Assembly: GCA_050084515.1 (NCBI GenBank)
Contig: CM114271.1
Location: 24,862,001 to 24,926,000 of the forward strand
Reading direction: 5' to 3'
Source: Blasia pusilla
Taxonomy: Eukaryota
Length of the DNA: 64,000 nucleotides
The position numbers and the translations under genes are program-made. Positions 6,988 through 58,852 of the stretch are shown in pieces. Below the pieces are notes generated by a model, which was given only the letters and a program-made list of their open reading frames with translations, made no database searches and was not told the DNA's origin. Each line of letters begins with the position of its first letter. Position 1 is the first letter of the stretch.

Positions 6988-7093
6988 CGTTAGGTTGCCT
7001 ACACCCATAGCTAGTAGAGCTAGAATAGTATAGCGACATCGACGTCACTTGGTTACTTAGTGGTGGTAATTTGGTGGTGGTGCGGCATCGGCG

Positions 7094-8640: not shown

Positions 8641-9219
8641 ATAGGTTGAGGCATTAGCTGTAGTTACAAGAGGAGCCACTCAAGCGTTAGAGCCACGTGG
8701 TGCTACTGTGGAGTTGGACCCATAGAGGGGTGAGGCTGGGAGGCAGGCTAGGCTTCCCCAGTCATTCTTGTTGTCTGAGGTGCTTAGGACTCCATCCATG
8801 GTTCCTACGCCATCTATTGAGCCAACACTGGGGACTGAGGCATCTACATCGCGTGTAGTAGACACGGATGCAGCATCCAGTGCAGTATTGCGAATGGCAA
8901 CTTCGGTGTTGGGATCCCCATTGTTTTCGGCCACGGAGCTGATGGCTTTAGGAGTTAACTTAGCTCCTGTATTTCAGCTAGCAGCCACGTTGTGTAAATG
9001 TGGGGGTGTTACTGCTGAGGTGGATGAGGGTGTTGCGGTGGAGCGACCCTCTATGTCAGGTGTAGCATTAAGTACCAGTGCTACTTGGCAGGCAACAACG
9101 GCGAAGATGGATGCATTACCAGCCCGGCCAGCCATTGATAGCGAGAGGCTTACACCTGGTGTATGTATGTTGGACAACTAGAGTGGGATATTCCGATTGG
9201 TAAGTCCTACAGGACAGAT

Positions 9220-9560
9220 GTATAGACCAGATAGAGTCTTGTTAGACTCTGGTGCCCAACCTTTGATGTTGGGAAAGGCGGCATGTATTGGTTTGGGTAT
9301 TCGGAGGTTAGAGCTTGAGCCTTGCCCATTCTAGATTCAAACATCACTTGGAGGATCCAATGAAAGGTCTCAATTCATGACACGGGAGAAGTTTTTTGTA
9401 GAGTTGAGACCAGATCATGCGACTGATAGCTCCCGATTTGGAGTACCTGTAGTGGTCACATCAGCCGAGTCGTATGATGTACTAGTTGGAGGAGCAATAT
9501 TGTACCCGATGGGTTTTCAAATGGATTATTGGACTGAGACAGCGTCTTATAGACCAAGTT
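9220..9560 (+). pseudogene. Retroviral-type aspartic protease domain
   Basis: YRPDRVLLDSGAQPLMLGK (catalytic DSG) and downstream ESYDVLVGGAIL. Confidence 0.85.
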
Positions 9561-9949
9561 GGCAGTCCGCGGATGGATGTATGAGCCAAGTTCCTGTGAG
9601 ATATATTTATGGGGCTCGACCAGGAGGATCTTCCCCAATAGTGTTAGCATCTGTGGCTGGTTTTAGTGGAGTAGTCACTTGGCCATGAGACTTTTTGGAG
9701 GGTAATGTTTCTGCTATGGATTCTCCTGTGCATGAGGAGATAGAGGAGGTCCCTATTTTTGCAGCAGTGGCATCCTCATCGTTGGATGTGCCACTTTGGA
9801 GTTCAGGCGATGCACTACGGCAAGAGGCTGATCGCCTAGTGCATGAGGCTTGGTGTGAGGCTATTATACCTCACGAGGAAGAGGAGGCCCCATGGCGGAC
9901 TCCTACTTCTGGTCCAGTTGGGTTATCCCTTTTGGATACTACACCCATT

Positions 9950-10920
9950 GTATGGCAGTATCCGCCGGAGGGCATTTGTGTGTTAGATCTCTTTGGTGGG
10001 ATTAGCACTGGTTTGGATGTACTATTGCAGGCCGGTATTCCTGTGCGGAGATACGTGTATGTGGAGCGAGATGAGACGGCCCAGAGAGTCTCATCCCGAC
10101 ATATTGGTCAATTGATGCGGAGATATCATGAGTTGTTTCCGCCATCAGCTATTCGTGGGTACCAACATGCTTTGCCGTCACACATTGCATTGTTGGTGGC
10201 AGGACCTTGAGAGGGTTGGTCATGTGGATTTGGTGAATCCTGGATGGCCATATCAGGGTCATACACGTGCTGGTCGTGGTGAGGGATTACACGACCCTAG
10301 GTCTTGATTTTTTTGGGAGATGTCACGGGTGTTACGACATCTTCAGGTTCATCAGGCACGTGCTCCAGCTTACATTCTGGAGAATGTTCCATTGTTGGGT
10401 GACACTTACACCCGGATGATGGCGAATGTTCATGAGGTGCGGTCTTGGATTGGACCAGCGGTGTTGTTGGATGCAGCGCGAGTTGGCTCGCGTGCACATT
10501 GTCCACGCTTGTGGTGGACAAACTTGTTGCCTAGGGAGGTTCTACGTCGAGCATATGATGCAGTGCAGCGGGATCCTTGCCTTACAGTGGATAGTATCTT
10601 GGATACTGGATGACTTTCTCAGGTGGTGAGGGTTATTGATCGGTCACCCATGGCAGTGGTGAACCATGTGGGCCAGCCTAGGATGGCACTACCCATATTT
10701 GTGAGTTTTCCTCGTCATATGCCTATAGGGAAGGTGGTCCCGGGCTTGTATGGGATTCTCATGTGCGATAGTTGGTGGAGCCTAACGCTGATGAGAGAGA
10801 GAGCGTGCGATGGGATTTGCTATTGGTGTGACAGCGGTTGCTTCCAATTCTGAGGCTTCACGATGTTATGTGTTGGGTCAGGCCATGGACCTGAATTGTT
10901 TGGCTTGGATTTTGAGTCTT
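9950..10920 (+). pseudogene. C5 cytosine DNA methyltransferase domain (DNMT3-like) within pol, copy A
   Basis: Motif I VLDLFGGI (9980-10003); II YVYVERD; IV VDLVNPGWPYQG (catalytic PC read as PY, 10248-10253); VI YILENV (10371-10388); VIII SRAHCPRLWWTN; IX EPNADE/RERAMGF; X LGQAMDLNCL. Broken by frameshifts and stops. Confidence 0.9.
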
Positions 10921-11229
10921 GGTATGGCCGAGCAGCGTCGACTTCGGACTATGTCTATGGGTCTTCCACCCCTTGTAATGAGCTCGATGGCTACCGGGAC
11001 GGTAGAGGCATCGGTGGAAGCAGAGAGAGTAGTATTTTGCATCATTGGAATAAATGGGATGTAATGGCTGGGCATGTGGAGTTGGTTGCTCATGCTAGTG
11101 GAGGAGTTATTTGCTTAGATGATGGTGTAGCTAAGGGTGTACCATTTTGTGAGGGGGTTGCGTAGCAGCCAATGGCATCGTCCTCTCCCTCTAGTGTGCC
11201 AGTGGAGGAGACTTGGGAGCCATTATTGG

Positions 11230-11962
11230 TGCCCCAAGCTTACGGGAGGTGAGAAACGACGCTTGACACAGTTCCTACATGCTTATAGTAGTTGTTTTGT
11301 CTTTAGCATGAAGGAGTTGGATGCTCTGGTTGGACCCGGTATACGGATTGATTTGGCTATTGATACGCCAATCTTCCGTCGTCCCTATCGATATAATGAT
11401 ATGGAGAGGGATCTGATTCAAAGTAGGACGTTGGACCTTTTGGAGGCTGGATTAGTGGGGTTATCGCATGGAGAGTATGCATCAGCCAATGTCATGCGTG
11501 CTAAAAAGAATATGCATGGCAACCACACCAATAGGCGGATGTGTGGAGATTACAGTCCTATCAATCAGCAAACCAAGGCCGATAGGTATGCCATGCCTAC
11601 ACCTGAGGAGATCTTTGATGTGGTGGGACAGGCAAAGATTTTCAGTACTTTGGATCTTCGGGCAGGATACCATCAATTGCCGATTCGGGAGAGTGACAAG
11701 GCCAAGACAATATTTTGGGGTGTCAATTCTCATGGCAAGGATTGTTTGTGCCAGTGGAAATTCTTACCCTTTGGGTTGAAGAATGCACCTGCCGAGTTTC
11801 AGAGAGTGATGGACAAGATCCTAGCTGGGTTGGATTTTTTTCGGTGTTACATTGATGATATCTTGGTGTTCAGTAACACGGTGGAGGAGCATCAGATACA
11901 TTTGCAGATGGTGTTTGAGCGGTTGAAAGCTCATGGTCTACGTTTGCATCGAGGAACATGCA
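11230..11962 (+). pseudogene. Gypsy reverse transcriptase, truncated, copy A
   Basis: [70 protein letters not shown]. Confidence 0.95.
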
Positions 11963-12755
11963 CTCCTCCACTATGAGGACTTTATAAGTCTTCTTTATAG
12001 AGTTTCCGATTGTGAACATGTCAAAGATCTTCAATGAGCGGATGTGAATTATCTTCGGGACATACCCTTTGTTAACAAGAGTTTTAGCAGCCCAGAGAAA
12101 ATAGTGTCTCATTCGCGTAAAGGTGAGGATAGTGATATCTTTTCCACGCCTCACCATTTGTGCTCCCTCAAGGCAACATACACAGTTCTCATCCGGAATT
12201 GTCTCCTTTAAGTTGTATAATAGCACATGCCCAAAAAAAATCACAGGGTTGTTACTTTGAATGGTAGCCTTCTTGAGACCTTTGGTTTTGTAGGAAGTAA
12301 AGCAAGCAACTAATTTCAATCCAGGCATAGATTGGAAGTAGGATTCCAACCGATGAGAGTATTTTACCCCGAGTTTTAATTTTCTATCCAGTCCACAGGT
12401 GACCTGAACCTCTGATAACACATCGGATAGTGAAGTGGCCTCCCGAGTTCTAGTGTAGCATTACACAATTGTTGGAGATCCGGTTGTAGGTCAACAATAG
12501 GAAACCCAAGTTCATGCCTTCTATAACTTGCGGAAATCCAATCATGGCTGCATCAATTGCTATCCCTATGAAGGAATTTTCAGCAATTGGAGTGTCCAGC
12601 AGCCTCTAGTCACCAAACTTTTCTGCAAAGCCTTTTGTAACTTTGTAAGAGCCAGCACTATGACCAACATCCTCTCCCATGAGACAAACTCTAGGGTCTC
12701 TCTCCATCTCCTCTACAAGACCCTCATGTAGAGCTTCATATATAAGAAGCTCATG
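11957..12755 (-). pseudogene. pdhB: Plastid pyruvate dehydrogenase E1 beta subunit pseudogene/captured fragment
   Basis: [56 protein letters not shown]...[11 protein letters not shown]...[14 protein letters not shown]...[16 protein letters not shown]...VLIVEECM. Contains stops and frameshifts, no introns seen, 3'-truncated. Confidence 0.9.
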
Positions 12756-25423: not shown

Positions 25424-28164
25424 CCGGGGATCAATTGAAGTACTTCTGCCCAAATGAATCATGCACTTTCCAAAAGTCTTATCCGGCTACCATTGGAGCT
25501 CTAGGGAATACCCCAACAATTTGGCCCATTGCTACAACTACCAATTGCACTCAAGAGGAAGTGGACAATCTTACAAGTGTCGGATTCACACTCGTAGACG
25601 GAGGAAGTTCGGAACGTGTTTGCATTACAGAGATGTTTGCATTTTGGATCCAACCTAAGATTGATGTCAACATGTATCCAGAGAAGATGGATGATCTCAA
25701 TCCACTAATTATGTTCGAGTCAAAAAATGGGGTAAAGAGAAACAAAATTTGTAGACCAACAGTGGAAAGAGCAAAGCGAATTGCATAATCTCGGGAGGCA
25801 AATATGGAAATCATCGCCATAAAAGATGTTCATCGTGGCAATGGAATATGAAGGATGTATTGAGTCAAGAACAGCACTGTGAATTCAAGTGTCACAGGGG
25901 TGTATGTGGTATGGTACATATCTGTTGCTTTCCCACATGTTCCTGTGATGACTTTGTCCAAAGAGAGACAACTGGGAAAAGATATTTCCCTTGTAAGCAC
26001 ATGTACTATGTGTTGCTTGTAGTTTTAAGAGAGTCAGAGATAGGAGTAGGAATCCACCAACCAATTTTTTTCCCTCAAAGAAGTGTGAAGTATCTTAAAC
26101 AAACCACGTTGAAGATGGAAAATGAGGTCTTAGATTGTACTTTGAAGTGCCAGAATGTTCACGATGACCTTGAACTCTAATCAGCAAAGGAAAAATGATG
26201 AATTTTTTCAGACCTTGGATGGAAAATGTGATTTGTTCCACATTTTGATTCCAATGATTTTTCATGTTTTTTATTTTGTGCAAGTTGCAACCCGTCAGAT
26301 TGAGACGGTTTGCCAGAATGTGGAAGAGGAAAAACCAATCTGTGGGAGTGACTAAGCATAGAGAACAAATTGCAAAAATACTCACCAAAAATCTTCCTCT
26401 CTTCAACCCAACGGAAACTGTCTTCAAATCACACGAAACTCTCTTAAAATGTAGTTTCCTCTCTCCTCTCACCGCGCCTCGGGGAGGCCACCCTTACCTC
26501 AATGTGATCATTGTTAGAGATATGGGCACACACGTGAGAGATGTTTTGAGCTCCACCCCGATCTGTGCCTAGAGGGAGATTGAGGACCTCAAGGTGGCAG
26601 AGGACAAGGTGTAGGAGGACGAGGACGTGGTGGAGGCAGGACCCCACCACCTGCCAGAGTGAGTGCAGCACTTGCATCAGAGGCAACTTTGGCGAGGATT
26701 GCTCAGTTGGAGCAACGCCTTCAGGCTATGACGGCCCAACAAGCATCTTCATCGGGTGTAGGGGATGCGTCGAGGGATCAGCTAAGGCCTAGGATATGAT
26801 GGGAGATCTAGGAGTTATGGGATTTTTGTGCAACATTGCATAGGTGGATGCAGATGCAGTGGTTACAAGAGGTGCGATAAGAGCTTCTAAGCCGTGAGGA
26901 TCTGATGTGGATTGGATCTCCAAAGGGTGGAAGCTGGCAGGCAGGCTACACTTTCCTAATCTTTCACATTGTCAGAGGCTCTTCGGACCCCATCGATGGT
27001 CCCTAGACGGCCTTTGAGGAGTGTTGTTGTCGCAGATACCGATGTAGTTAGAGGAGCGGGTGAGGCGAGTATGTCTACCAAGCCCATGCAGCATTCGACA
27101 CGTCCTAGCACTGGCACGTTACAAGAGATGGCAACGACATTGTGTAGCGTCCCACTATTTATGGCCTGAGATTTGTTGACATGTGGAGATCGATCAGCTA
27201 AGGTCTTTTGGTTGGCAGCGATGCTATGTGAGAGCGATGAGTTTGGTTCTTCTAGTGTTGAGACTCGCACAACAGATGTGGCACAGGTAACCTTGGAGCA
27301 GGTGGTTGAGACAAGGATCACAGAGAGTTGGCATGCAGCAACGGCTAGAATGGCAGAGTTGCCAGCTAGACCATCGATGTAGCGTGCAACCGTCTCACCA
27401 AGAGTTGTTGTCCTGAACAACCGAGATGGAGTTTTCTACTTGGTTGGTCCATTTGGAGTCATGTATCAACCGCAAAGAGTGCTACTTGGTTCAAGATTAC
27501 AACCCCTTATGTTGGGGAAGGCATCATATGTAGCAATGGGTTGCGAAAGTGTGAGATCACTCCATGTCCAATTCCAGATTCAAGCTTCATTGGGAGGCAC
27601 ATCCCTGACACAGTTCATGACTCGCGATGAGATTGTAGTGAGGATTCGGCCCAATCATCCTACTGATAGTGCGATGGTGTGGACGTGATCGGTTGTGACA
27701 CCTGCCGAGTCTTATGATGTTTTGGTAGCGGCTATCGTATGGTATCCTCTAGGTTTCACACTTAACTTTTGGGAGGAGACAACTTCCTATTGACCAAGTT
27801 GGCAGTCAGGTGCCGGACGAGCCAATCAGCTACCCGTGCAGTATGCAGGGAGACTCGATGGGTTCACTTCGAGGGTCAACCACAACAATTTCTGCTTATT
27901 GTGGCATGTTATGTTGGCCTTGAGATTTACTGGAGGGGAACGCCGATGTAGAGGATAGTCATGAGGAGTGGCATGCGATGACGAGCGTGGCTACATCTTT
28001 TGGCGACACTTCTTCAGCTTTGTGGTGGGACGAGCATCCATTTGCAGAAGAGATCAGACAAGCTCAAGAGGCAGGCATGAAGCCGAGCCTATGCTCTAGA
28101 TCAAGACAAGATAGAGTTACCATATGCTCTAGGAGTGGAGACGTTAATACCCTTGGACACCACA

Positions 28165-28960
28165 CCGATTGTGTGGCAGTATCCCGAGGAGGATGTACTT
28201 ATACTAGATCTCTTTGGAGGGATTAGTACATCGTTGGTTGTAGTGTTGCAGGCCGGAGTACAAGTACAGTAGTACTTGTATGTTGAGAGAGATGAGACTG
28301 CATGAAGAGTCTCATTACATCATGTGTCGAGACTAGTCCAGCAATATCCTCAGTTATTGCTAGTGTCTACAGTCATGGGATACCATAGGTATTTTTGGCT
28401 GACATTTCATTGTTGGGGGCAACATATGTGGATAGGTTTGGTCCAATATACTTGGAGGTGGCAGGGTGGCCATGTTAGGGTCATTCTTTGGCGGGTTGGG
28501 GACTTGGCTTGCAGGACCCGAGGTCGACCATGTTTTGGGAGATGTTGCAAGTTCTTTGACACTTGCAAACTACCCAACAATGTTCTCTAGCTTACATTTT
28601 GGAGAACGTCCCATTGTTGTTAGTGTGGAGGACATTAGGATTTGATGTTGGATGCGGCAGTGTTGCTATGGGACATCTTTTACCATCAAAGTTCTTGGCG
28701 GGCTTTGATTAGAGCTTACAATGGAGTTGTTACTTATGATGATGTACCACCATTGGGTGTTCAAATCGTTAGTGAGTTTTCCGTCATCTCATGCTTTTTG
28801 TGGCATGATATGGGTTGAGCATGCAAGTTGGTGGAGCCCAACGGAGCAAGCGAGCTATGGGGTTCTCTGGTACAACGTGTGCCTATGATGGCGAGGCATC
28901 ACGAGACATCTATTGAGTTAGGCTATGGACCTAAAGTGTCTTACTTGGGTGTTCAATCTT
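28165..28960 (+). pseudogene. C5 cytosine DNA methyltransferase domain (DNMT3-like) within pol, copy B
   Basis: IVWQYPEEDVLILDLFGGIST; YLYVERDETA; VAGWPC*GHS (PC at 28470-28475); LQDPRSTMFWEM; AYILENVPLL; internal deletion; then VEPN..RAMGF and AMDLKCLTW. Confidence 0.88.
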
Positions 28961-29299
28961 GGTTGGCTTATTAGAGACGGATGCAAGAGGTATCTGTGAC
29001 ATTACGTCCACTTTTTCAGCGTAGCGTCTTTCAGGACGCGTGAGACATTGGCTCGGGGCACGATGGTGATGGAGAGGCATCCATGGACTTCATGGGATAT
29101 GTCACGAGAGCACATAGAGATGGGAGTTCATTTCGCTCATGCAAGACATAATGGAGTGCCAAGAGACTTGGTGTCTAAGTTGGGAGCGAATATTGCTGCT
29201 TCAGAGGTTGGTAGTTAGCAACCACCACCCTCCTCTTCTCCAGAGGTCACGAGAGAGACTTGGGAACCAGTCATTGGTCCTAGGTTGATAGGAGCGAGA

Positions 29300-32060
29300 G
29301 GAGATGAGTGTTGCAATTCTTGTGGAGATTCAAGGACTATTTTGCATATAGTGTGCACGACTTGGGTACGCTAAAGGGTCCAAGTATTTGGATCGAGTTG
29401 TATAGTGATACTCCTATCTTCCGATGACCCTACTGGTATTCCAACATGGAGCGAGCCTTGATTCAGAGTAGGAGTTGAGACTTGGCAGACGTTGGAGTGG
29501 TGGAGAGATCACTTGGGGAGTATGCTTCTGCCACAATTATGCCAACGATGAAGGATGCATGGCCACTAGATCGATAGGTGGATGTGTGGAGATTACCATC
29601 CTATCAATTGGCGTATGAAGGCCGATCGCTATGCTATGCCTACTCCCGAGGAGATCTTTGATGCGGTGGGGCATGCAAGGATCTTTAGTTGTTTGGATCT
29701 CCATGCTGGTTATCATCAGTTGCCCATCCAAGTGGAGAACAAGGAGAAGACAACATTTTGGGGGATAGATCCTTTCGGGAAGGATTGTTTGTACTAGTGG
29801 CGGTTCTTACCATTTGGTTTGAAGAACGCCCCTACGGGTTTTCAGCGAGTTATGGATAGGATTTTGGCTGGTTTGGATTATGCAAGATGTTACATCGATG
29901 ACATTATTGTCTTCAGTACCATGGTCGAGGAGGATTAGAGACATCTGGAGGAGGTGTTTCGATGATTGCAGTTACATGGGCTCAAGTTACATCTAGGCAA
30001 GTGCAAGTTCTTCCATGACCAGATCGAGTACCTTAGACACACCAATTATCCAGGGGGTATTGGAGTTGAGTAGACAAAGATGGAGGCCATAGCGCGCATT
30101 CCCCGCCCTACAGATGTGAGTCGAGTTCGAGCTTTCATGGGATTGGCAAACTACTACCGACGGTACGTGAAGGGCTTCAGTGCGATTGCAAAGGCACTGA
30201 CTTTGCTAACTAGGTTGGAGAAGGAGTGGTTTGGGGGAGATGATCAGGAGCAAGCATTTCAAAAGCTCAAGGATAGGTTGAGGTCCTCGCCCTTTTTGAG
30301 GAGACCTATGGGTGATCGTGCGTTATAGTTACATATGGGCTGGAGTATGTTGGGGTTAGGAGCGGTGCTCACTCAGAGAGATGATGGAGGGAAGGAGTTT
30401 GTAGTGGCATATGCAAGCCACTCAAACAACACTGCGGAGGCGAAGTATAGTTCCTATGAGGGGGAGTGCTTAGCTGCAGTGTGGGCAGTGGCCCATTTTA
30501 CATGTTATTTGTTCGGGAATCCTTTCACTGTCATCATTGATCATCAGCCCCTCAGATGGTTGATGGAGTCTGACAAGCTACAAGGAAGTTTGCCAGATGG
30601 TCACTCTTGTTGCAGGAGTATGATTTTCATGTTGTCCATCGCCCAAGACATTTGAACAAGGATGCGGACAGATTGAGCCGTAACCCATGAGCCACAGCGA
30701 TGCGACTTGAGTGTGGTGGCATGGTGAGAGTTATGAGGAGATGGTGGTGAGTTGGCATGCACATGCCAATTTGTGTCTATTGGCTGTGTCATGTCAGCAT
30801 GAGGCATCCACTCCATGAGGGAGGATGGATGCTAAGTCCTCAGATCCACATGCTAGTGAGGAGTCGACAGCGATTGGAGACATCCACCATAATGAGATGG
30901 TCTTGGAATACCTATGCATTGGTGTCTTAGCAAGCACGGTGGATGCTAGAGAGCAAGATCAAGTCCTACAACAAGCCAAGAGGTTCAGGTGGGAGGGGAC
31001 GCATGTGCTTCCAGTTTGGGAAGATGGACGAGTGCGGATGGTGCCACATCCTTTGCAACAAACACGAGTCGTGAGACATGCTCACAAGGAGTTAGGGCAT
31101 TTTGGAGTCAAGCGTACGTATAGCTTGATTCAAGTTCAGTATTGGTGGTGTGGTATGCAGACTAATGTTCAGCAGTTTGTAGAATTGTATGTGATAGGGT
31201 GTGGCCATCGTTCAATGCTCCCACACCACACTTGCATCCTTTACCGATCATGGGATAAGGATATCGCTCGAGTTTAGATTTTGCAGGGCCTTAACCATTG
31301 ACGGGATGCCGTAGTCCATACGTGTTGGTCATGGTGGAGTCCTTCTCCAAGTGGAATGAGTTGGTAGCGTTGCCGGATAGGTCAAGTGAGGGAGCGGTTT
31401 ATGCATTTCTTGATGAAGTGCTTAGTCATTCCGGCGCACCAGCAGAGGTGTTGAGAGACCAGGGTACTGAGTTTAGGGGTGACTTTCCGCCTTGTGTGAT
31501 CAAACACTGATAGATCATCATACGACTTCTCGAGATCATCTGAAGGCAGATGGTTTGGCAGAGAGAGTTGTGGAGACGATGAAGAGAGGACTACGCAAGT
31601 ATGGATTGCAGAGAGGACACTTGGGAGATTGGGACCTACAATTGGCGTGGTTGGCGATGGGTTATCGCTTCAGTTGGCACGCATCCTTAGCGTCATTTTC
31701 ATTGTATTTCTTGCTCTATGGGAGAGAGCTAGAGTTACTGGCGTTGATTCGACGAGATGTGGTTCAAGTGCTTGACTTCGACGATCCAAACGTACGGGTA
31801 TGACTGTCTTCTCAACGGGTGGAGAACGTGGCTATCGCTCAGCATTGCGATACTCTAAGGTACACGACTACAGATGGAGGAGGCTATCGACCTGGATTTT
31901 GCGATTCCATCCTGACGATTATATCTACCTACAGCAGACAACGCCGACGACATTGGACGTGATGGCGGGATGCACTATTCTGCGAGTGCAAAATTTTACC
32001 TTCATGAGTCCTTGTTTTAGAGGGTCGTGATGGTACCTTTTGGAAAGATCATGTGCGTAA
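29300..32060 (+). pseudogene. pol: Gypsy RT-RNase H-integrase region, copy B
   Basis: Gypsy domain order RT-RH-INT with the motifs listed above; many stops and frameshifts. Confidence 0.93.
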
Positions 32061-32135
32061 TTTGCACCATGTCATCTTCCAAACGTAGATGGGAGGATTG
32101 ATCCAAGCTTTGCAATTGTTCCTATAGGCTTGAGA

Positions 32136-32276
32136 TGCATGTTGTGTGGGTCTACCAAAGGTGCAGCCACGATGCTAGTTTGTGATGGGTGTTCTCGAGG
32201 ATGGCATATGTCGTGTTTGACGCCGACTCTTGACTTGGTTCCTTAGGGACGTTGGCTTTGTCCCATATATACTTAG
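32136..32276 (+). pseudogene. PHD finger at the C-terminus of the retrotransposon integrase
   Basis: CMLCGSTKGAATMLVCDGCSRGWHMSCLTPTLDLVP*GRWLCPIY fits C4-H-C3 with the PHD W-x-C signature; the last Cys is read as Tyr (TAT). Confidence 0.9.
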
Positions 32277-33629
32277 TTGTGATAGTTTGATACAAGATGC
32301 CTCTTGGTGTTATGGATTGCAGGAAGGTAACTAACGATGGAGCGACATAGCACCCGACCTCCTGATCTTAGCACCAAAAAGGTGCATAGCATTTAGACAT
32401 GTTTTGTAGGCTATCTGGAGTTAGAGGGACCTAACCACCAGCTAGGGGGGCGATTGGGTTTGTCCAGTTGTTCAAGTGTAGAGATGCTAGGATTCATAGC
32501 TAGATAGATCTTACACATGTGTGTTCATGACAGTCGATGTATGTTGGCAACGATGTGTATTCGCACGACAACTGTCATGGTAGATGAGGCGTAAGGCGAG
32601 ATAGTATCGAAGCCTTAGAGGGGTCTTGTACTTCCCTATTTTAAGAGGTCATATGTGACCTACTCTTAGGAGGTGACCTACGAGTGTAGGTCACCCTTCC
32701 CTTTATGAGGAGTGGCAATCTTGGAGAGGTTGACCTTCCCGGCCATGTATGGTTGGGAAAGTTCGAATAACATCCTATCTAATGTTTGAAAGTCTCTTCT
32801 TGAGGTATATTCTTATTACTTTGATTTTCTTATTTCATATTTTCTTCCTTTACGCAGACTTGGATTTAAAAGTGTTCTTTAGCATACCTCCTTTTTGTAT
32901 TTCCCCCAAAACGACCAATTTCTATAACAAAAACTAATCAAAGAAGTAACATGAGCATGATAACTTAGTGAGTTATATATCAAAAATTTAATTTCAAATG
33001 TACTTTAAGATGTACATTTGAATGGAATTTAACCATTGGGAAAATGGGCAGAGTGGTTTGCTAAATTAGGGATGAATTTCACTCACCAAACTCACCACCA
33101 TTGCCATACGAACAAACATATATACTAATTTTAGTTGTTAGACTATATTCAGTATTTATGGAGAGTAAACTAGATGAATTTCTGCCCCCTACCATGTCTT
33201 ATGTGAATGGGACTTTCCATCATGATTATATTGTGAATGTCACGCTTTTTGTAACAAGGATAGATTTGAATTCAAATTAAAACTATTATGTAATAGCTAT
33301 TGATAAAAGTGAAATCATATATAGACCTAAAAAGCAACCCTCCCAAGGATCTTCTAACTCAAGGTTAAGTTATCTAAACCATGGACTTTCGAATGGATAG
33401 AAGAATCAAATACCTAATGTTCCGTATCCTAATGTGAAGAACATTATAGCTCTATGGACAATATCTCCCCTCCAAATCAACAAGTCATAGCTAGGTTCAA
33501 GTATGGTCTCCTGCCCCGAGTTTTTTCCGAAGTCCTCCCTCTTATCTAACTCGCCTTTGACCATCCTTGAACTAACTCGAGGATAAATAGGGAATAGGAA
33601 TTTGACTAAGAAACATTGTTATAGTGCTA

Positions 33630-38317: not shown

Positions 38318-40466
38318 TAAATTTCATACTATTACTTGAACAAATATATTTAGGATTTTTCTAAGAGTGCCTCTCTTTTCACATGGCTTTTTTAGATTTC
38401 GAAATTCGTTCCTTTCTAAACCAGTAAGATCGTTGGAATTCAATTATAAACTAAAAACTAGACTTATGGCACATTTTGTGTTGCAGCAAATTACGAGTCC
38501 ATTCCCGTGGCCAAACCGTTTTTCCACGAAAATTTGTCTTCAATGAGCGGAATTTTGTCTTAAACGCAAGTGCATGAAACACTTGTAGACAGATGAAAGA
38601 CGAGTGTCGAACCTAACGTCATTTGACAATTCGTCAACGACGTGGCCTGTAAAATAGTGAGAACTATGCAGGAACTTTTGGTCCACAATGGGAACAAAAT
38701 TAGGGCTTTCCCAAGCTGCTCTCCGAGTCTAATGCCCGACTTTTCGGTAAATTGTAAGCTAACACTTGATGGTCGAGGTGGTGGGTCGGTTATTCATGAG
38801 GTAATCGTTAACGCTCTTCGAAGGACTATTCTCTCGTGGCCGTTGTTGGGTGCGCCTTACACGCACCTTCGAATCCTGAATTGCGATGAGTAACAGTTCT
38901 CGTATTTAACAATTAAACCTCACCTGCTATCGCGAGAGGCCAAGGAAACCCAAACGGAGCGAGAGCGAATCCTTCAGCGAATCCTTGGGAGATATCCGTC
39001 GTCGGTAAGTCAACAACAACAACAGATCTCTGGACAAAACTAGCAAACGATATCAGATTCGAAGCATGCTTCGCGGGATTCCAAACATGCCTCCGGCACG
39101 ATTTGCTCTCCCTCTCTCTACATATATCCCTTTCTATCTATCTGTGTTTTGTTTTCGTTCTTTCTACGAGCTAGAGTACAGTTCTACCGGGAGGGAGAGA
39201 TCGGGCATATTATATAGTATGACTTGATACGCATGTCTTCCGCGGCGTTGAGACACTTGTTTGGTGCGGAAGATTCTGGAGTCAATATGGTGGGGCCCGC
39301 AGTGGCGCTTTTGCGCAGGTGGCGCGCGGAGGGAGGCTGTAGATTGGGGGCAGAGCCGAGTCAGCAGGCAGGCCTACGGGCCTACAGGCAGGCAGGCAAT
39401 CAGGCCGACCGACCGACAGAGGGCGAGGGGCAGATGAGTTCGTCCCGAGCGCTAGCGGGACAATGTAGGAAGTCCTGCGGCGCACCGGAGTGCAGTCAGA
39501 TCCCTTGTGGTCGAATGGCTTCCCATCCGTAACGAAATTTCAAAGAGTCGAGTGAGTCAGTGCACGTGCTGGAACGATCAGCGCGCTCTTGAGCTGATCC
39601 GTTTCCTTGACACCGGAAGTGCATGACTGTGGTGTCAATAGTGGAATTGACCTGTCGCGCCCACACGCGTCCCTTGGAGCTAACAACTTCGGCTCTCTCT
39701 GTCCTCAGAAGGGGAACACACCAGTCTATCGCTGCGATGCCGTTGCCCGGCATGCAGAATTCCTATTTCTGTCTATCGGCGGTTTCGTCATCTTCGTCCA
39801 TTCTTGTTGTCACGGACTGTATAAATCGGATCGCCTGAGTCGTCCGCTATTATTTCCGTTTGGAAGAGAGGTGGATTGCCATCGTGGAGAGTGGAATTGA
39901 GACCGTCGCGGAAGTTGTCCGCAGTCGTGCTGCTTTAGAAAAGGCGGGCGGGGCCGAGTGTTGGATCGCGTGGAAATCGCTCGTCTGGAACCCATGCACT
40001 TGTCAATGTCCCTTTGGTTCCATTTGCGCACTGGCGATGCTTTGGATTCCCCGACAATTCGACTTTCTCCCGCGTGGAGTTCCCCTCTACGCATCTCGTG
40101 TATCGTAGTAGGACTGGAACCCCCGCAATCAGTTGTGCTGGCAGATTTTGTCCACCGCCGTGCAGCAAATACGCGTCGTCTATAATTCTCGTCACACCGC
40201 GATCAACTCGCACTATATGATCTTTGATGTCTGTGTCGCGAGGCGGTGATGTTTAGGAGTTCAGGCAGCGGTAGGCGGCAGACTTTAGGGTTTCGCGAGT
40301 TCGAAAGAGTTTAGGTTGAGTACGTCGATTTTGGGTGGAGAAATCGGAGTTCGAGGATCTCCACGAGGTCCACGTGAAAGGTTTCGATCGCCAAGATTGT
40401 GAAAATCTGTGGAAATTTCCTGTTTGTAAGTGGCTCAATCACCTCTAGTCCAGGGTCGATTCCGCC

Positions 40467-42170
40467 ATGGGAGGCCTCGGCTGCGTGGCATCGAGCGGCA
40501 TAAGTCATCTGCTCACATTCCTCATGACGTTACAATCAGCGGCGGTGAATAGCTCAGGAGAAGTCGATCCGAAAAACTACGTCGATCTGTCCCTCCGTCC
40601 GCATGTGTCCTTGGCCGAGGCAGAAACGGCCTTCAAGTTGCTTCCGATCGTAAGCGGCGTCGGGATCGCCAACGTCACTCTGCAGAGATTTGTGTCCGAC
40701 TACTTCGACCCTCCCGGATCCGAATTAGAGCGGTACCTGGCCATAGATTACAACGCCAAACCACAGGCGTTCCTCCGCAATGTGAAAAACGACGAGGTGC
40801 TCCAATGGGCGTACGAAGTGCACAGCATCTGGTTCGACCTCATGCGCCAGGAGATTCCACAGGTAGCTGAGGACCCCGACCGCTTCACGCTCGTGCCCCT
40901 GACGAACCCGGTTGTGGTCCCAGGCTCGAGATTTCGAGAAATCTATTACTGGGACAGCTTCTGGTCCATCCGGGGCCTGGTGGTGAGCCGCATGGTCACG
41001 ACGGCTCGTGGAATTGTGGACAATCTGCTCTCCATGGTGGAGACCTATGGATTCGTCCCCAATGGCGCACGGAAGTACTACCTGAACCGCAGCCAACCGC
41101 CTCTGCTGAGCGAGATGGTGAAGACAGTTTTCCTGGCCACTGGCGACGTGAGACTCTTGAAGAAAGCACTGCCGATCCTGGTGAGTGAACACTCGTTCTG
41201 GACTTCGCGGCCGCACAATGTCGTCGTTGTGGACGCCAAAGGCGTGCAGCACTCGCTGAGCCGCTACTACGCTAATTGGAACACCCCCCGGCCCGAGTCT
41301 TCCACCATCGACAGGGAAGTGGCCGAATCCCTGGGAGACGATACGCGGAAAGCGCAGCTGTACAACGACATAGCCACCGGTGCGGAGAGCGGGTGGGATT
41401 TCAGCTCGCGCTGGATGGCAGATCGGTACAGCCTCGACACGCTCCGCACTTCCCAAATCGTCCCGGCGGACTTGAACGCGCTCGTGTTCCAGATGGAGAG
41501 GAACATCGCTTTGTTTGCCAAGTGGGTAGCGGACAACGAAACCGGCCTGAAGTTCTCGAAACTCGCGCAAGCCCGGCGCTCTGCGATCGAAGCTATTTTG
41601 TGGAACGATGAGATGAAACAATGGAACGACTACTGGCTCCCCGCGAACACCAACTGCGACGCAGAGTCCACCCCTGCGATCTTCGACAAAAGGTCTCAAA
41701 ACGCCGACGTCTTCGCGTCCAACTTCATTCCTGTCTGGTGCGGGTTGCTACAACGCGACGAGAACGGAACCGCGAGGGTGGACGAACTGGTCGCGGCGCT
41801 CAAGAGCTCGGGGCTGCTGCAGCCCGCGGGAATCGCAACGTCCATGACCGAGACGGGCCAACAGTGGGACTATCCGAACGGTTGGGCGCCGTTGCAGCAC
41901 ATGATCATAGAGGGACTGGCCATGACGAAGTCCCGGGCTGCCAAGGCCACTGCCAAAGAGATGGCCGTGAGATGGCTGCGAACGAATTACGCATCGTTCG
42001 TGAAGACGGGAGCGATGCACGAGAAGTACGATGTGCGAGAGTGCGGTGCGTCTGGCGGCGGAGGAGAGTATGCAGCGCAGACTGGCTTCGGCTGGACTAA
42101 TGGCGTCGTCCTAGATCTGCTGAGACAATTCGGATGGCCTGCGAGCAGATCGATAGCCTGCTCTCAATGA
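40467..42170 (+). CDS. TRE1: Trehalase (glycoside hydrolase family 37), single coding exon
   Basis: 567-aa ORF with DPKNYVD, VVPGSRFREIYYWDS, YYLNRSQPP, PRPES, AESGWDFSSRW, QQWDYPNGWAPLQ, EKYD and GGGGEY..QTGFGWTNG. Confidence 0.96.
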   Translation: MGGLGCVASSGISHLLTFLMTLQSAAVNSSGEVDPKNYVDLSLRPHVSLAEAETAFKLLPIVSGVGIANVTLQRFVSDYFDPPGSELERYLAIDYNAKPQAFLRNVKNDEVLQWAYEVHSIWFDLMRQEIPQVAEDPDRFTLVPLTNPVVVPGSRFREIYYWDSFWSIRGLVVSRMVTTARGIVDNLLSMVETYGFVPNGARKYYLNRSQPPLLSEMVKTVFLATGDVRLLKKALPILVSEHSFWTSRPHNVVVVDAKGVQHSLSRYYANWNTPRPESSTIDREVAESLGDDTRKAQLYNDIATGAESGWDFSSRWMADRYSLDTLRTSQIVPADLNALVFQMERNIALFAKWVADNETGLKFSKLAQARRSAIEAILWNDEMKQWNDYWLPANTNCDAESTPAIFDKRSQNADVFASNFIPVWCGLLQRDENGTARVDELVAALKSSGLLQPAGIATSMTETGQQWDYPNGWAPLQHMIIEGLAMTKSRAAKATAKEMAVRWLRTNYASFVKTGAMHEKYDVRECGASGGGGEYAAQTGFGWTNGVVLDLLRQFGWPASRSIACSQ

Positions 42171-50913: not shown

Positions 50914-53900
50914 CTATGACATGTTCCTCTTCTTCACCTTCCCCTTGAGCGGTCTTTTTTGGTCTTTTGTCCTTTGTTTCTTATCAAACCTATTACCAGA
51001 TCCTTCTGACTTTTCAGTTCTTGTTTTCTTATGACTGTTGAAGTTCGACTTCTTCCCAGACCTATCACCAGCAAACCCTGGTGATTTTGGAGGTCCTCGC
51101 TTTTTCTTTTTCACATCCAAAGGTTCTTCTTCTAAATCATCACTCTCAAGATTTGCATCATCTTCGGCTTCATCGTCTGAGGAAATTAGAAGGTCCTCGA
51201 TGATATCGTCATCATCCTCATCTGAATCATCCACCTTTCTCTGTTTCTTGGACCCTTTCACTGGTACATTTGGTTCTTTTGCCTCTCTGGAAAAGCAATC
51301 CAACCACATCATATCGAATTCAGGATGGTCAGAAAGAGTTCAATGATTTTCTCATGCTTGTTACACAACAGTTCGTGTTTATGCCATTATGAAGGACAAG
51401 GCTTAAAACTAATGTATGGTTTAACAAAGGAGTAGCTACATGAAGACACCATTATGTGCTAGAAAGATTTGGATTGTTGAAGGAACATAGAGTACAGTAA
51501 GAGCATGAATTCTTATGTGTACATGATGTTTGAACCAGTCCTACAGTGAAGGATGAGGGTAATAGTATTGACAGGTGACTCCTTGAGTCTTTCAGGAAGG
51601 TTTGCAGACCAAGCGATTGTATCAAATTTTACATCCAAAATTCCTTCATCTACACATACGTACTGTTCCATCTGTGGTTCTCAAGTTAGAACTTACTCTT
51701 CAGATTTCTTCTTTGGTAACCATTCTTTGCTGAAAACCTGGGTTGCCTTTTCCTCATCATCTCCACTATCAGGTTCATCTTCATCTTTGTCATCATCCTC
51801 GCCTTCGCTATCGTCATCACCATCATTTCCTTTCCTTGCCTTGCGAGAGCGCCCTCCACCACCAACAACCTCACTGTATACCCACACAGATTACACAGAT
51901 AAATTGATGAGTTATGGCTCAGAAAAATGTTTTGAGCATTTTGCATGTATGGTTGGTGTATCCTGCAGCAACTGAGCACAATGCTGTCCGGTAGATGTTG
52001 GATCATCCCACAGTGTAAAGTAGCCCTGAACATGGTAGAGAGAAATTTCTCCTGGGTATGTAGGATATAAGGTCTTCAGAAAATAGAAAGCTGCAAAAAG
52101 AATATTCAGGTTACAAGATGGATCCATGATCAATTGAGGAACTAGCAGAATCATAATTATACAGTACCATGTGGTCCACACTTAATAGCCAGAATGTAGA
52201 ATCACCTGGACTTATGAAGATTACTGCTGCGTTGTTGGGCACGTTGGCGAAGAATGACTAGATATTTTGACAAAGGGCTGGTTCCTGCCTCCTTCTCAGC
52301 CTGCTCAGATATACCTGACAGTTACTTTCTCTGAATAAAAATTCTGTGTTAGCCTACAGTACCATAAAACAAATAAACAGTATTGCCACACACGAAGGGA
52401 AGTGGTAAAACCTGAAGGAATTCTTGAACAGATGCAGTGTCCTTTGGAGAAAAGGTCACCCCGTCTCTCTTACTTCCAACAAACTGGACGTTGCGATCTA
52501 TCTGCAAAATGGGTCAAGGTGAGTGATTGCTTCTCATCCAGTCTTGCAAAGCTTATGCAAAACTCCATAATTGCAAAGGATGAAAACTCGTCTTTCAGTA
52601 GTCCCAAGGCAGGGGCGAGTGAAAGACATATTTTCACCCCTCTATCAAGGCATAATACTTTCTGAAATCCAAGGCATTAACTTCTTGGTTGTGCTTGGTG
52701 TTTGGGTAAAAAATGAATGAGAACCAAGTTGTCAAAGGGGATCTGATGACTTAAAACATGTTAAGCAAAACCCCATCCATTCTGAAACCTTTTCAACTTG
52801 ATCAGGCACTTCCAGAGTTGCTAGAATGCATGCTCGTCCATTCTCTATTAAGTAACTCCTGATACATGGACAGAGGCATGTCCATGAATGCCCTGACGTG
52901 ATGGCTTCAACTGGTCCATCAGTATCAGTCAATTATAAGGATACAACAAACAGACCTGGTCAATAAGCTGCTTTGCTTGCCGCCGGAACCGATCCACGTT
53001 AGTCTTCTTAAGAAAGTGACGTAACTGCAGCAGAGGTACAACACATAACTCTGGGAATGCTATGGCGTAACTCCATTGGGCTAAATGCTCTCCAAGTTGC
53101 TCCATAACAGTAGCAACACACTCATCCTGAAAACCACGTGTTCTGATATCTGGTTTGGATACCTGATGATCAACTAGTGTCAGTTCTTCTCAAGTGTAAA
53201 TCCCTGCATACTTACAGCCACAGTTGAGACTCTTTAGCTTATGCAAAGTTAATACTAGAAACTATACAAAGGTCAAGATATGAAGGTTGTTCACACAGTA
53301 CAACCAACGGATAAATTCATTGGCTTTCAGAAAGTAACTTACCTTTATTGAGGTGTCAAAATCTATTGCCTTTCCTACACCACCAGTAGGTGTCATATGC
53401 AGCTCCTTGAACTGGAGCATGTCTAAGAGCAGCGCTGCCACAGGAGTGAACACATTGGTGGTACTTGCAAGCTGATTCAACATTTTCACACATTGTAGTC
53501 GTAGAGGGAAATATCGAGCAGTGGGGACCAGCCGAGCCACTCCTCCAATGATTTGTGCCAGAGGATACACTAACAGTTGCAAATCTCCTTGACCAGAGTA
53601 TGTACAAAGTACCTTGACCCACAAATGCAAAGAGTTGATGTACTGCCAGTTGTATACACTTTTGAAAGCATCCTGCAATTAGGACACCATTTGCATGCTG
53701 CTCAAATTCTGCCAATCAACTCACAAAGGGAATAGGAGTAATATTTTGTTCAGAAAATAAAAACTACAATAGCTATCCCATTGTCATACTTTTAAAGGTG
53801 AGGTAGACAACGTAGCTGGTGCAGAAATGCAATATAGCCACCACTGAAAGGTGGGTAAGACATACCTTAGTTTTCATGGTTAAGGCATTCCGTAGAATAA

Positions 53901-55672
53901 ATGCCATTTGACGTATGAAAACAAACGCAAGCTGATAGGAGGCACCCAAGTCAATGCCGTATAGTTCCACCACACAACTGGCTCTGAAGTGAATTCGAGG
54001 TAAAGACGACGGATTCACAAACTTAGAATTCGCAGCAAATTCCTTGTACATCCCTTTCAGACAGGTATCCAAAGAGTCTGGTCCAAGTTTCATTGCCATC
54101 TCTCGAATGAAGAATAGTGCTATTACAGGTAGAGCTCCTTCTCCACTGCCCCAAAAGTGCAATGCAACCTGCATTCCATCCGCTAAGTGTGTTACAACCT
54201 CGAATCTTTTGGGCTGCCAGCATGTAAGCCGATTGCGCATCACTACGAGTGTACACACTAAAACACTGTTTAACACCTCCCACTTCACAAGATCTCCTCT
54301 GGATGCCTCCCTGGGACAAAAATCTTACCTTGAGGAATCTCCGTGATAGTTTGGGAAAGGCTACCAGAAACGGAACTGACACCTTAAGCCTCCGAAGAGT
54401 GAAGGCAATCATCTCATTATCAGTCATCTGGTTCAATATATGGAGAACATTTCCAAGATATGACTTCACCAGTCGCTCCACTTTCTTCCAACGAGGACTT
54501 TTATGCAGATCAGTAGTACCGGATTCCTGGCTCTTCTTGTCTCCAGGGCCGCCCGAAGCAAGCATGTGCTTTAAGGCTCCGTCCATTTCGCAAAGCACAA
54601 AAACCATAATTTTATTGAAGACATGGCTGCTTGCAATGCTATACTTCGTTGACATGTTCTCTCCTTCTCCATCCCCATAGTGACAAGCAGAACGAAATGC
54701 TTGCAGAAGACTTCGAATTGCCGCCGGATGTTGCTTTTCACGAACTGCGACACACCATTCTTCGACCAGGGCCGTGGTCAGAGTAACTGGGCCGTCGTCA
54801 ATCTCAGAAGCTGGTCCATCCGTTTCGTTTTCTTCGTCCCTATCGTCCTCCAGATCCACGTCGCCATCGGACTCCTACAATTGAGGTTACCACAACAGCT
54901 CGAGGATCATGGATCTGGTATCGGCGATTTCAACGCGAATTTCAGTACTGGTCAAGAGGAGTTTAAAAGCTTCAGTTGTTCACAAACTCACCTCGTCATC
55001 TTCATCTTCAAAATCCAGTAGCTCCTTGTCGTGTTCTTTTAGAAACTGGTAAAACTCAGGATCCTACAATTGCGGATTGGCACCAAATAATCAGTCACGG
55101 GGCAGAGCCTTCACTGACATACCAAATCTAAGGCATTTAGTCTCCAGTAAACTTTAAATGCCTAAATGCCCAACGTTTCCGACCTCCGAACCTCCACCTT
55201 CAGACGTGAATTCTTACTGAAGGAAATATTTCTCTGCCACAACGGCGAGAATTCGTTCGAAAGTTTTTCTCTCGATCGTTTAGAGGTGAGATGCGGAACA
55301 ATGCGGTGCCTATGAACTCCATTTGTGGGACTTCCCACTTTTGCTCTGGCATTTCCACCCAGGATTGAAAGGCCATGCTGTTCGGCTTTCAAAAACAAGT
55401 CCTCCTACCTTCTGTTGAAGTTCGTTCAATTCCTGCTTATGCTGCGAACTCTCTGAATCGAGCTTCTTATTCTGGTCATGCCACCCTGTCCCGTTTGCTT
55501 CCGGCTTCTTTTCAGCTACCTCTTCACTCTCGTGAGCTGAGTCATCCGGTCTGTACGCAGCTTGCTTGCGTCGGATGGCTTGTTTCATAGGCTTGAGCTT
55601 CTTCCGGTGTTTCAAGGCAGCACCCAGGTGCTTCTGTGCGAACTTCTTCACGCTCTTGGAGGTTTTCACCAT
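50914..55672 (-). CDS. NOC2: Nucleolar complex protein 2 homolog (multi-exon)
   Basis: MVKTSKSVKKFAQKHL; DPEFYQFLKEHDKELLDF; LLQAFRSACHYG; VKSYLGN; YQLAFVFIRQMA; VYNWQYINSLHLW; YFPLRL; acidic/basic C-terminal tail; GT-AG introns between the ORF pieces. Confidence 0.95.
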
Positions 55673-56726: not shown

Positions 56727-58852
56727 CTAGTAGATACGAGAGTCAGTGAATTCTGAAGCACTTTCACGTTGGAGATGTCTGGGAGGTGTGGTCGTCTACC
56801 CAGATTGTCCGTGCTGCAGATAATGTTGAAAGACATTACGGGGCCCAGCTCCAGTCGGTATTACGAGTGCAGTTGTCCAGAGGATTCGCCTATCTGTACG
56901 GTCACACCTATATCTCCACAAAGCTCCCCAGCGTAGGATGTCCCATTCTTGTTGCAGGATGTGTTTTGATCGTGTGGAAGCTGTTCTGGAGAGGTGTTAG
57001 GCTCTCTCTCCACAATAGAAACCTCGAAATGGAGTAGACAGTCGTCTTGCAAGCGTATTCCTGAAAGGCGTGTCCGAGAGTAGAGTGATAGCCGAACGTG
57101 TGAGAAGATGCATGCGAATAGTGTGGCACCTCTACCAATTTGAAGATGTTGTTGTCCAACTGCCCCAAACTGACAACATGAGTGACTCTGGCAAATTCTA
57201 ATTGTTTTGGTGGTCGAAACGCTGCTGATTGAAAGCCATGTAAAGTGCAAGCTTTCAGAATATTGAGTCTTATCAGGTGCAGAGGGTAGCAGATTACAGT
57301 GTCTGGATGATCATGTAATTCTTAGCGCTTCCCTTCAGAGTTGCGATCTGATCAGTACCTGTTCCATCGCATCCTCTACTATCTCCATGGATCTTTTCTG
57401 CAACGTATATTGGGGATACGATGTTGCGTAGCCCTGTCTTTACTTTATGTGAACCCGAATCCTGAGCAGGTAGCCCAGGATTCGGCGTCGTCAATCTATT
57501 TGTCACAGATTGGACGATCAGTTCTCCGATCTCCAAGTCTGTCAGTTTGCAACGATTGGCCAAGCAATGGGAGGACCAATTGGAGGAAACTTCCCACTTC
57601 ATGGTCGTCTGATCTTCGATGGATCTGTGCCTCTCGTACTGGGGCAGTGATGAAAATAAACGAGATGCCAACTCCATGGAAAATTGCCACATTTGTCAAT
57701 TCTACCCCTGCCGTGATTATTGAGAGAAGTGGGATGTTCGAGTATGTGAGTGAGAGTTCAGTGGATCCTTGATGCTGGACAAAAAGGATGGGAGGCTCCA
57801 AGTTTGCTGACGGGCCTAATTTAACATCTTCCTCGCGTCCATTATTATGAAGGGGCCACTGAGTTTAACAAAAAGGGCCACAGGACGTAGTCAAGTTAGC
57901 AACACTGCACGTCATACGACTCATGGGGTTCTGCGGGGTTGTTTCTAACTCAAGCCAAGATCATCACATTATGATTAACTCGGAGATTCCCCATCGATGA
58001 AATCGTGTAGGAGCCCGAATCATCTCAGCTTACGCGAAAGCTGAGTGGCAGTCAAGCCCAGAGGAATAGATTAGACCACGATATGCGATACTATTCAGTT
58101 CCCTTAAAGATCTCGTAACGAGGATGAGTTGCTTTCTTACAATTATCGCCACGCACTCAACAAGCGTTGCAACGCTGTCCTGAGCGTCTCACTTCAGTTC
58201 AACCTCTGACTTGCAAATTCTACACTTCTAGAAAGAACACACTCACTGCAACTTTGCATTGGGAAGTTACAGAAGTGTGCTCATAAAAGAGGCACGATCT
58301 GACCTGAGCATCTCTCTTCAGATTGATCTTCTGACTTGCAAACTCTACGTTCCTAGAATAAACACACTTCCGGCAGCTTTACTTTCGGAAGTTGGAGAAA
58401 TGCGCTCATCAAAGAAAATAAATTTGGAAACCCATCCACGGAACAGAAGTGAACTCCGAGACACACACGCTGAATCCGCAACACTACTCACTCAAAAAAC
58501 GCGCTCCGAGCACGGGTCAACCCAAACCCGAGCATCTCTTCCTGTCACAGGCGCGGAGGAGTTACAGGTTGTAGCCCGAATTCGGGAAGCCCGAGTGACA
58601 CGTCCTGATGCCTCAGCCTCACCCTCAACCAAAACAAATGGCACGGCACACCCACAAAACGGAATGTCACTTCAAAGCGTGCCCCCTCCACCATGTCCCA
58701 GACCCTAACGTGGGGAGCCTTGTGCCCTCCGTGCTCGCGCGGTGAGAGAGGGTGGGAGGGAAGAAGAGAGGGAGCGTCACACAACTACTACATGAATCAA
58801 TTGAAGTAACTTGTTTCGTTAGCCCTTGACGCCATTTCTGGGATATGCTTTG

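Follow-up and report, generated by a model that had tools for sequence, protein, structure and literature searches.

This locus raises the question of why the polyprotein (Pol) of a Ty3/gypsy-type retroelement should end in a PHD finger when the same kind of element also encodes a DNA methyltransferase (DNMT). The window, by which we mean the whole stretch of 64,000 nucleotides of Blasia pusilla DNA that was analyzed, contains two elements of this kind, called copy A and copy B (Table 1), and the finger follows directly after the integrase C-terminal domain of copy B. Our reading is that the stretch is the decayed C-terminal PHD finger of a dead Gypsy-DNMT3 Pol and that, in the family, the finger would tether integration to chromatin unmethylated at H3K4, after which the DNMT would methylate DNA. 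We give this reading as a whole, which draws on sequence comparisons and a structural model, a probability of roughly 0.55.

Table 1. Retroelement and host features located in the window.
Feature	Positions	Strand	Evidence or description
Copy A, second diverged element of the same kind	8798..11964	+	RVT_1, E 3.8e-24; tblastn; family HMM
DNMT3-like region, copy B, strongly decayed	27858..28619	+	tblastn with P0004 residues 277-523, 32% identity; family HMM
Reverse transcriptase and RNase H, copy B	29293..30687	+	Pfam, tblastn, family HMM; 9 in-frame stops in three aligned pieces
Integrase H2C2 and catalytic core, copy B, broken	30819..31563	+	PF17921, PF00665 (below cut-off), tblastn, family HMM
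Integrase C-terminal region, copy B, with helical part and SH3-like barrel; reading passes through several frames and stops	31546..32070	+	tblastn, family IN-C HMM
PHD finger relic, end of copy B Pol	32136..32276	+	PF00628, E 2e-8; family HMM; tblastn
Host gene, trehalase	40449..42167	+	Uninterrupted ORF of 573 residues; most GC-rich stretch of the window (0.57)
Host gene, Noc2	53265..54324	-	Two exons
Host gene, PP-loop/TilS-like	58823..60286	+	ORF of 488 residues

Translation of 32100-32290 in the frame of position 32136 gives the spacing C-x2-C-x11-C-x2-C-x4-H-x2-C, followed after about 16 codons by W-x-C-P. The limits given in the preliminary description turned out to be exact, running from the first Cys codon (32136-32138) to the stop codon that ends the open reading frame (32274-32276). 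Among the 89 ORFs scanned with Pfam, the stop-to-stop ORF at 32061-32243 matched the PHD profile PF00628 with an E value of 2e-8 and 34.6 bits, above the gathering cut-off of 24, over profile positions 1-33 of 47. The translation and this match bear out the C4HC3 PHD motif that had been described behind the integrase of copy B. The family HMM matched the finger at 32133-32243 (E 7.5e-17) and found no second PHD finger within the 64-kb window. The finger is genuine and beyond chance, yet it is a relic in a dead copy, with defects that the preliminary description did not mention. An in-frame stop at 32244-32246 lies inside it, between the sixth and seventh ligands, and a Tyr stands at the position of the eighth zinc ligand (32268-32270), which leaves seven of the eight ligands and an incomplete C4HC3 set. 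This particular finger cannot work, because stops and frame changes riddle the whole of copy B.

Copy B is a long-dead Ty3/gypsy-type element of the Gypsy-DNMT3 kind. The order reverse transcriptase (RT), RNase H, integrase is present as in Ty3/gypsy (Metaviridae), with plus-strand Pfam matches to RT/RNase H at 30329-30652 (E 4.8e-25), to the integrase H2C2 domain (PF17921) at 30819-31274 (E 7.1e-12) and to the integrase core rve (PF00665) at 31295-31507, the last having an E value of 2.9e-7 and 31.1 bits, slightly below its cut-off of 32.6. The family HMM for the integrase C-terminal region (IN-C) matched in three pieces, 31546-31791, 31819-31997 and 32008-32070, and the path from integrase to PHD finger shifts frame several times. 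By tblastn, copy B is colinear with the intact relative P0003 (1,039 residues), the finger included; residue 32 aligns at 29293 and residue 1035 at 32264. That alignment is broken into seven pieces. Reading from RT to PHD requires at least six changes of frame, and the aligned pieces contain about 20 in-frame stops, for which reason we consider the copy long dead. Further upstream, motif I of the DNMT is visible in the ORF at 28081-28269, and the family DNMT profile finds remnants at 28195-28269 and 28479-28556. A protease lies upstream in the relatives P0123, P0148 and P0160. A blastn self-comparison and a repeat search found no LTR pair bracketing copy B, which is weak evidence given the age of the copy and the disturbance of its 5' side.

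Copy A shares 66-73% nucleotide identity with copy B over three segments of the blastn self-comparison. It holds a nearly complete DNMT profile, in six pieces at 9971-10920, just upstream of its RT at 11239-11964. Integrase and PHD finger are missing from copy A because the element is broken off after the RT, near 11970. A fragment of a host transketolase gene on the minus strand (11873-12460) abuts this broken end.

The surroundings of the two copies show some other features. Arrays of palindromic subrepeats of about 30 nt (TTGCAACCCGTCGGA...TCCGACGGGTTGCAA type) occur at 19460-20400, 22650-23300 and 26281-26325, with inverted partners up to 6 kb apart, and an ORF at 25755-26177 (+) gives a weak match to a SWIM zinc finger (E 0.0067, below cut-off). 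Together these have the look of a DNA transposon that carries subterminal repeats and is situated next to the 5' part of copy B or within it. The GC skew of the coding strand is positive (+0.13 to +0.25) at 4000-12000 and 22000-34000, the regions of both copies, unlike the rest of the window.

A search of longer proteins with the RT gave 346 matches at E <= 1e-10 among 2,865 candidates. Liverworts supply the best matches, Calypogeia fissa at 78% identity and Marchantia polymorpha at 65-79%, ahead of Sphagnum fallax, Klebsormidium nitens and Closterium. Pfam was run on 24 family proteins. In 11 of them Pol closes with the PHD finger, which takes up its last ~45 residues and lies about 210 residues downstream of the rve core; the remaining 13 end earlier or are partial. 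When the integrase C-terminus and PHD finger of P0018 were used as the query, PF00628 was found after the integrase C-terminus in 47 of 48 proteins; the one exception, P0023, carries a strongly altered variant finger in that position. Intact relatives have the finger in frame as the last module of the integrase, joined by a short linker to the SH3-like C-terminal barrel. The in-frame fusion to the integrase that the preliminary description had left to be confirmed in intact members is thus present in both samples, and the concern that the finger might be absent or out of frame elsewhere, or of recent host origin and private to this copy, is answered by the same 47 relatives.

The finger is well conserved across the family. 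Seven ligands are invariant in 53 of 53 family fingers, with Cys (43 fingers) or His (10) as the eighth, and all zinc ligands are kept in 18 metagenome loci. The median pairwise dN/dS of the finger is 0.047 (30 pairs) versus 0.051 for the integrase C-terminal region, values that are rough given a dS near saturation (median 1.49) and a finger of only 46 codons. They indicate, roughly, that the finger is under purifying selection in intact relatives. Both this selection test and the structural model described below were made on metagenome relatives of the Type II layout (see below), not on the window's own lineage.

The family is both repeated and transcribed. In a sample of about 1% of a genomic run of organism A, 15,592 reads matched 29300-32400 at 85% or more and only 17 of them reached 99%, which marks the family as highly repeated in that organism. 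Three RNA runs of the same organism each placed about 800 reads on this interval, the bins of the finger included. The first mate is nearly always on the minus strand, which fits sense RNA under the usual stranded libraries. Since most of the RNA reads are only 85-95% alike to copy B, the transcripts come from related copies and not from copy B itself, and no RNA run was listed with the exact copy B stretch. Near the junction of integrase and PHD finger, most reads of related copies differ from copy B by one base in length at three places, which fits frame breaks private to copy B.

The DNMT part of the family is DNMT3-like, with DNMT3A/B/C as its best PDB sequence matches (E from 8e-7). The earlier claim of a chromatin reader and a DNMT in one retroelement is upheld by the copy A profile, by the copy B remnants between 28195 and 28556 and by single ORFs such as P0018, which, like P0004 and P0010, combines PF00145 with RT. 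Local HMMs distinguish two layouts. In Type I, to which the window copies, the Marchantia proteins P0004 and P0010, and P0018, P0148 and P0160 belong, the DNMT stands before the RT and the PHD finger lies within 19 residues of the C-terminus. In Type II the order is RT-RNase H-DNMT-integrase-PHD, and a tail of 100-490 residues follows. Type II members (L002-L015, proteins P0121-P0154) often consist of one intact ORF of about 2,000 residues. In five scanned proteins the C-terminal tail matched nothing in Pfam at E <= 0.01, and a G-patch domain (PF01585) appears in the precomputed Pfam lists of some members (P0127, P0135 and P0154). Beside the intact ORFs of L003, L005, L006, L014 and L015, no direct or inverted repeats of 80 nt or more were found over up to 5.7 kb upstream and 4.5 kb downstream. 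A metagenome scan with P0013 returned only Type II relatives, at 38-55% identity.

We compared the occurrence of the two domains in several samples. The PHD finger is present in all six near-length relatives of the P0018 DNMT part. Among 21 metagenome loci, 12 carry both domains, five begin inside the integrase, three end before the PHD position and one (L013) has neither RT nor DNMT in its upstream DNA; counting only the 13 loci whose contig spans both positions, 12 have both, at least seven of them with one intact ORF of about 2,000 residues. The 150 library representatives, a list collected with a profile of the whole Pol (1,043 positions) and inflated by concatenated unrelated Gypsy ORFs, include 72 with a PHD finger, 60 with a full DNMT and 53 with both. 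Seven representatives bear a DNMT and no PHD finger: five of these end in the integrase C-terminal region, one has a decayed finger and one (P0212) ends fingerless, being close to Closterium P0030 in a DNMT-bearing branch without PHD. Conversely, 19 of the 72 PHD-bearing representatives are without a full DNMT. Ten of the 19 start within 270 residues of the RT and hence cannot be judged, four have the order RT-PHD-IN, and P0190, P0228 and P0247 are long and DNMT-less. The family proteins also include 19 ORFs of about 1,000-1,170 residues with the order RT-IN-PHD. The pairing of PHD and DNMT is therefore the rule, as 53 of 60 DNMT-bearing representatives share both, but it is not obligatory, because DNMT-less PHD members and a PHD-less DNMT branch exist; the PHD finger is the more constant partner of the integrase. 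Of the self-contained reader-writer module put forward in the preliminary description, the co-occurrence across the clade stands (53/60) and an obligatory coupling does not, as P0190, P0228, P0247 and P0212 illustrate.

The relationships among these elements were examined with fast trees, built without bootstraps and with outgroups and chromodomain rows that were all hits of one RT search. FastTree with 137 RT-RNase H rows recovered a clade of 57 rows (support 99) that contains both window copies together with every row bearing a PHD finger or a DNMT. With 218 rows it gave a clade of 114 rows (support 81) containing an inner clade of 110 (97), and Type II formed a nested clade of 59 rows (99). 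An IQ-TREE quick search with 71 chosen rows gave a clade of 44 rows (SH-aLRT 98) in which the Type I group branches first and Type II is nested (15 rows, 99). In this tree the window copies group with Calypogeia and Marchantia (99), and Klebsormidium nitens P0025 lies with both window copies inside the 44-row clade. The earliest branches of the clade already carry both DNMT and PHD finger, which suggests that both were present early and that the DNMT changed place once; a second, separate capture of a DNMT within the clade is also conceivable. The four RT-PHD-IN representatives lie at the margin of the window's clade or beyond it. One of them, P0259 (1396 aa), combines a Dam-type adenine methyltransferase, protease, RT, RNase H, PHD finger and integrase, a different combination of reader and writer, and together with two other RT-PHD-IN rows it lies outside the 44-row clade.

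The same trees bear on the statement that the PHD finger stands in place of a chromodomain, which we can keep only as an analogy of position. None of the nine chromodomain-bearing elements sampled, all hits of one RT search, falls in the window's clade in the 137-, 218- and 71-row trees, and we reject the reading of a chromovirus whose chromodomain was swapped for a PHD finger. The chromodomain profile PF00385 gave no match in the ORFs of copy B, where the PHD finger occupies that position. The two kinds of reader may moreover stand behind one integrase: in P0161 (853 aa), residues 569-615 form a PHD finger and, further on, residues 768-824 a chromodomain-like stretch that scores 24.7 bits, slightly below the cut-off of 25.1.

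To assess the likely ligand class of the finger, the P0003 finger was compared with the PDB by phmmer, which returned 104 distinct sequences at E <= 0.01. The best matches were CHD4 PHD1/2 (E 9.6e-20), DPF3, PHF12, MLL3, DPF2, ATXR5, KDM5 PHD1, PHF21A, KAT6A, WSTF, BAZ2A/B, UHRF1 and AIRE. We take most of these to be readers of the unmodified H3 N-terminus, and presumably CHD4, DPF3, KDM5, PHF21A and AIRE can be labeled H3K4me0 readers. The classic readers of H3K4me3 (ING, BPTF, TAF3, PHF2/8, RAG2 and PYGO) are absent from the best 60 of the 104 matches. Two residues ahead of the His ligand, where we take the cage Trp of H3K4me3 readers to lie, the consensus of 53 family fingers has Gly instead of Trp. 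An AlphaFold2 model of the IN-C and PHD regions of the Type II relative L001 (258 residues, 17-row alignment, mean pLDDT 73.9) consists of a long helix, an SH3-like barrel, a linker of lower confidence and the finger (pLDDT ~78-84). The modeled finger superposes on those of BAZ2A/B, ATXR5, DPF3 and ORC1b with 1.4-2.3 A over 47-50 columns, so that the model of this relative shows the PHD fold. The individual values, with peptide states taken from the titles of the PDB entries, are 1.7 A for ATXR5 with H3 (53% identity), 1.5 A for DPF3, 1.8 A for BAZ2A with an unmodified H3K4 peptide and 1.4 A for Arabidopsis ORC1b with an unmodified H3 peptide. Foldseek matched the integrase part of the model to foamy-virus and Ty3 integrases and gave its top ranks to the Tudor-PHD cassettes of UHRF1, PHF1 and MTF2, a ranking that may reflect only the presence of an SH3-like barrel beside a PHD finger. 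The PHDs of CHD4, DPF3, BAZ2A/B, ATXR5, ORC1b and UHRF1 share with the family finger the C4HC3 spacing and the consensus around the fourth to sixth ligands, with phmmer E values from 9.6e-20 to ~1e-8 and the modeled deviations given above. They differ from it in being parts of host chromatin proteins, whereas the family finger ends a retroelement integrase and has a putative ligand. Taken together, the likeness seen in the matches and in the model makes it likely that the finger of the family belongs to the H3K4me0 reader class.

Chromodomains steer chromoviruses to H3K9-methylated chromatin, and we propose a comparable role for the family finger. It would hold the intasome on nucleosomes with unmethylated H3K4, a mark we infer because the nearest solved fingers were crystallized with unmodified H3 tails. 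New copies would thereby be steered away from active promoters, after which methylation of the inserted copy or of its surroundings would fall to the element's DNMT.

The strongest alternative is that the PHD finger serves the DNMT of the element rather than its integration, directing or activating methylation on H3K4-unmethylated chromatin in the manner of an ADD domain. Host DNMT3 pairs its catalytic domain with an ADD that reads H3K4me0, and this precedent, the co-inheritance of PHD and DNMT over most of the clade from its earliest branches and the direct neighborhood of DNMT, integrase and PHD finger in one Type II ORF all speak for such a service. The arrangement of the domains points the other way. 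The PHD finger remains on the integrase C-terminus in both layouts while the DNMT moves, and in the layout of the window RT, RNase H and integrase lie between the two; moreover, P0190, P0228 and P0247 keep the finger without a DNMT, and the branch of P0212 and Closterium P0030 keeps the DNMT without a finger. We therefore consider this alternative unlikely. Somewhat less probable still is a finger that makes no choice of chromatin, binding a non-histone partner (a host protein or nucleic acid) or merely stabilizing the integrase. The His at the last ligand in 10 of 53 fingers and the strongly altered finger of P0023 do show some freedom of form, but the consensus is otherwise tightly kept, the finger is selected as strongly as the integrase C-terminal region, and in both sequence and modeled fold the nearest fingers are those solved with H3 tails. 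PHD fingers are common in host genes, and this is the only point in favor of a chance match or a recent host-exon capture private to copy B, both of which we rule out for practical purposes: the Pfam match, the colinearity with family polyproteins to the end of Pol and the recurrence of this finger, equally placed, in 47 of 48 relatives and 72 of 150 representatives speak against them.

Integration tethering by the finger, our preferred reading, has several relatives among known systems. DNMT3-carrying Gypsy elements of Klebsormidium (KnitGypsy-Dnmt3) have been published, with the DNMT domain assayed in a host free of methylation (PMC5890265), and a preprint (10.64898/2026.05.21.726589) names "streptophytes (Gypsy-DNMT3)". 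As in the window, PMC5890265 describes a Ty3/gypsy Pol with a DNMT3-like domain inside the ORF, and our K. nitens representative shares the RT clade of the window copies, the difference being that the latter group with liverworts. The main text of PMC5890265 mentions neither a PHD nor a chromodomain, while its figures (Fig. 4c) may draw a PHD, and one of its supplements lists neither PHD nor the liverworts Calypogeia and Marchantia. The two positions of the DNMT are not described in the parts of PMC5890265 and 10.64898/2026.05.21.726589 that were available to us, and a literature search that covered the main text and one supplement of PMC5890265 yielded no account of a PHD finger paired with DNMT3 in Gypsy-DNMT3 elements.

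Chromoviruses are Ty3/gypsy elements whose integrase ends in a chromodomain (Gao et al. 2008, cited in PMC6673714). They too have a histone-reader module after the integrase C-terminal domain, presumably used to tether integration to a chromatin state, but they differ in having a chromodomain where the present family has a zinc-bound PHD fold, in a mark that is probably different and in their position outside the window's clade. A PHD finger inside a Gypsy Gag-Pol, as found here, has been reported for the Chlamydomonas elements Gypsy-7a_cRei and REM1 and was proposed to limit harmful insertions (PMC9940879); in Gypsy-7a_cRei, however, a figure legend of that paper lists the PHD before INT, and no DNMT is reported there. 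Fusions of PHD fingers with transposable elements have been noted more generally (PMC6673714; preprint 10.1101/2021.11.30.470311). The "EpiLTRs" (10.64898/2026.05.21.726589) combine a chromodomain, an adenine methyltransferase (Dam) and a DNMT in one LTR element and so, like the present family, unite a chromatin reader and DNA-methylation writers in one retroelement. Their reader is a chromodomain, their DNMT is sister to DNMT4 and lies at the 3' end of pol, and they belong to other lineages; a PHD domain is not mentioned in the available text of that preprint. Against this background our additions are modest: a family-wide fusion of integrase and PHD finger, the likely assignment of that finger to the H3K4me0 class, the occurrence of the fusion in liverworts and two alternative positions of the DNMT.

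The locus itself is a fossil, and its value is only that of a pointer to the family. For the question of how retroelements choose safe landing sites and handle host silencing, chromodomain tethering is the best-known worked example. The clade described here would offer a second reader at the same position of the integrase, tied to a DNA methyltransferase encoded by the element, and because many intact, transcribed relatives exist in bryophyte and algal genomes for which chromatin maps are available or feasible, the reader-writer idea can be tested. A broader proposal, tentative and rather doubtful as it stands, is that an H3K4me0-type PHD reader and a DNMT3-like writer form an ancestral, selectively kept pair in a large and still transcribed Ty3/gypsy clade extending from streptophyte algae to liverworts and mosses, that the pair was rearranged once, with the DNMT passing from before the RT to between RNase H and integrase, and that new copies choose quiet chromatin and mark themselves. 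If this were true, the element would carry its own version of the logic of host DNMT3, which is to read unmethylated H3K4 and then methylate DNA.
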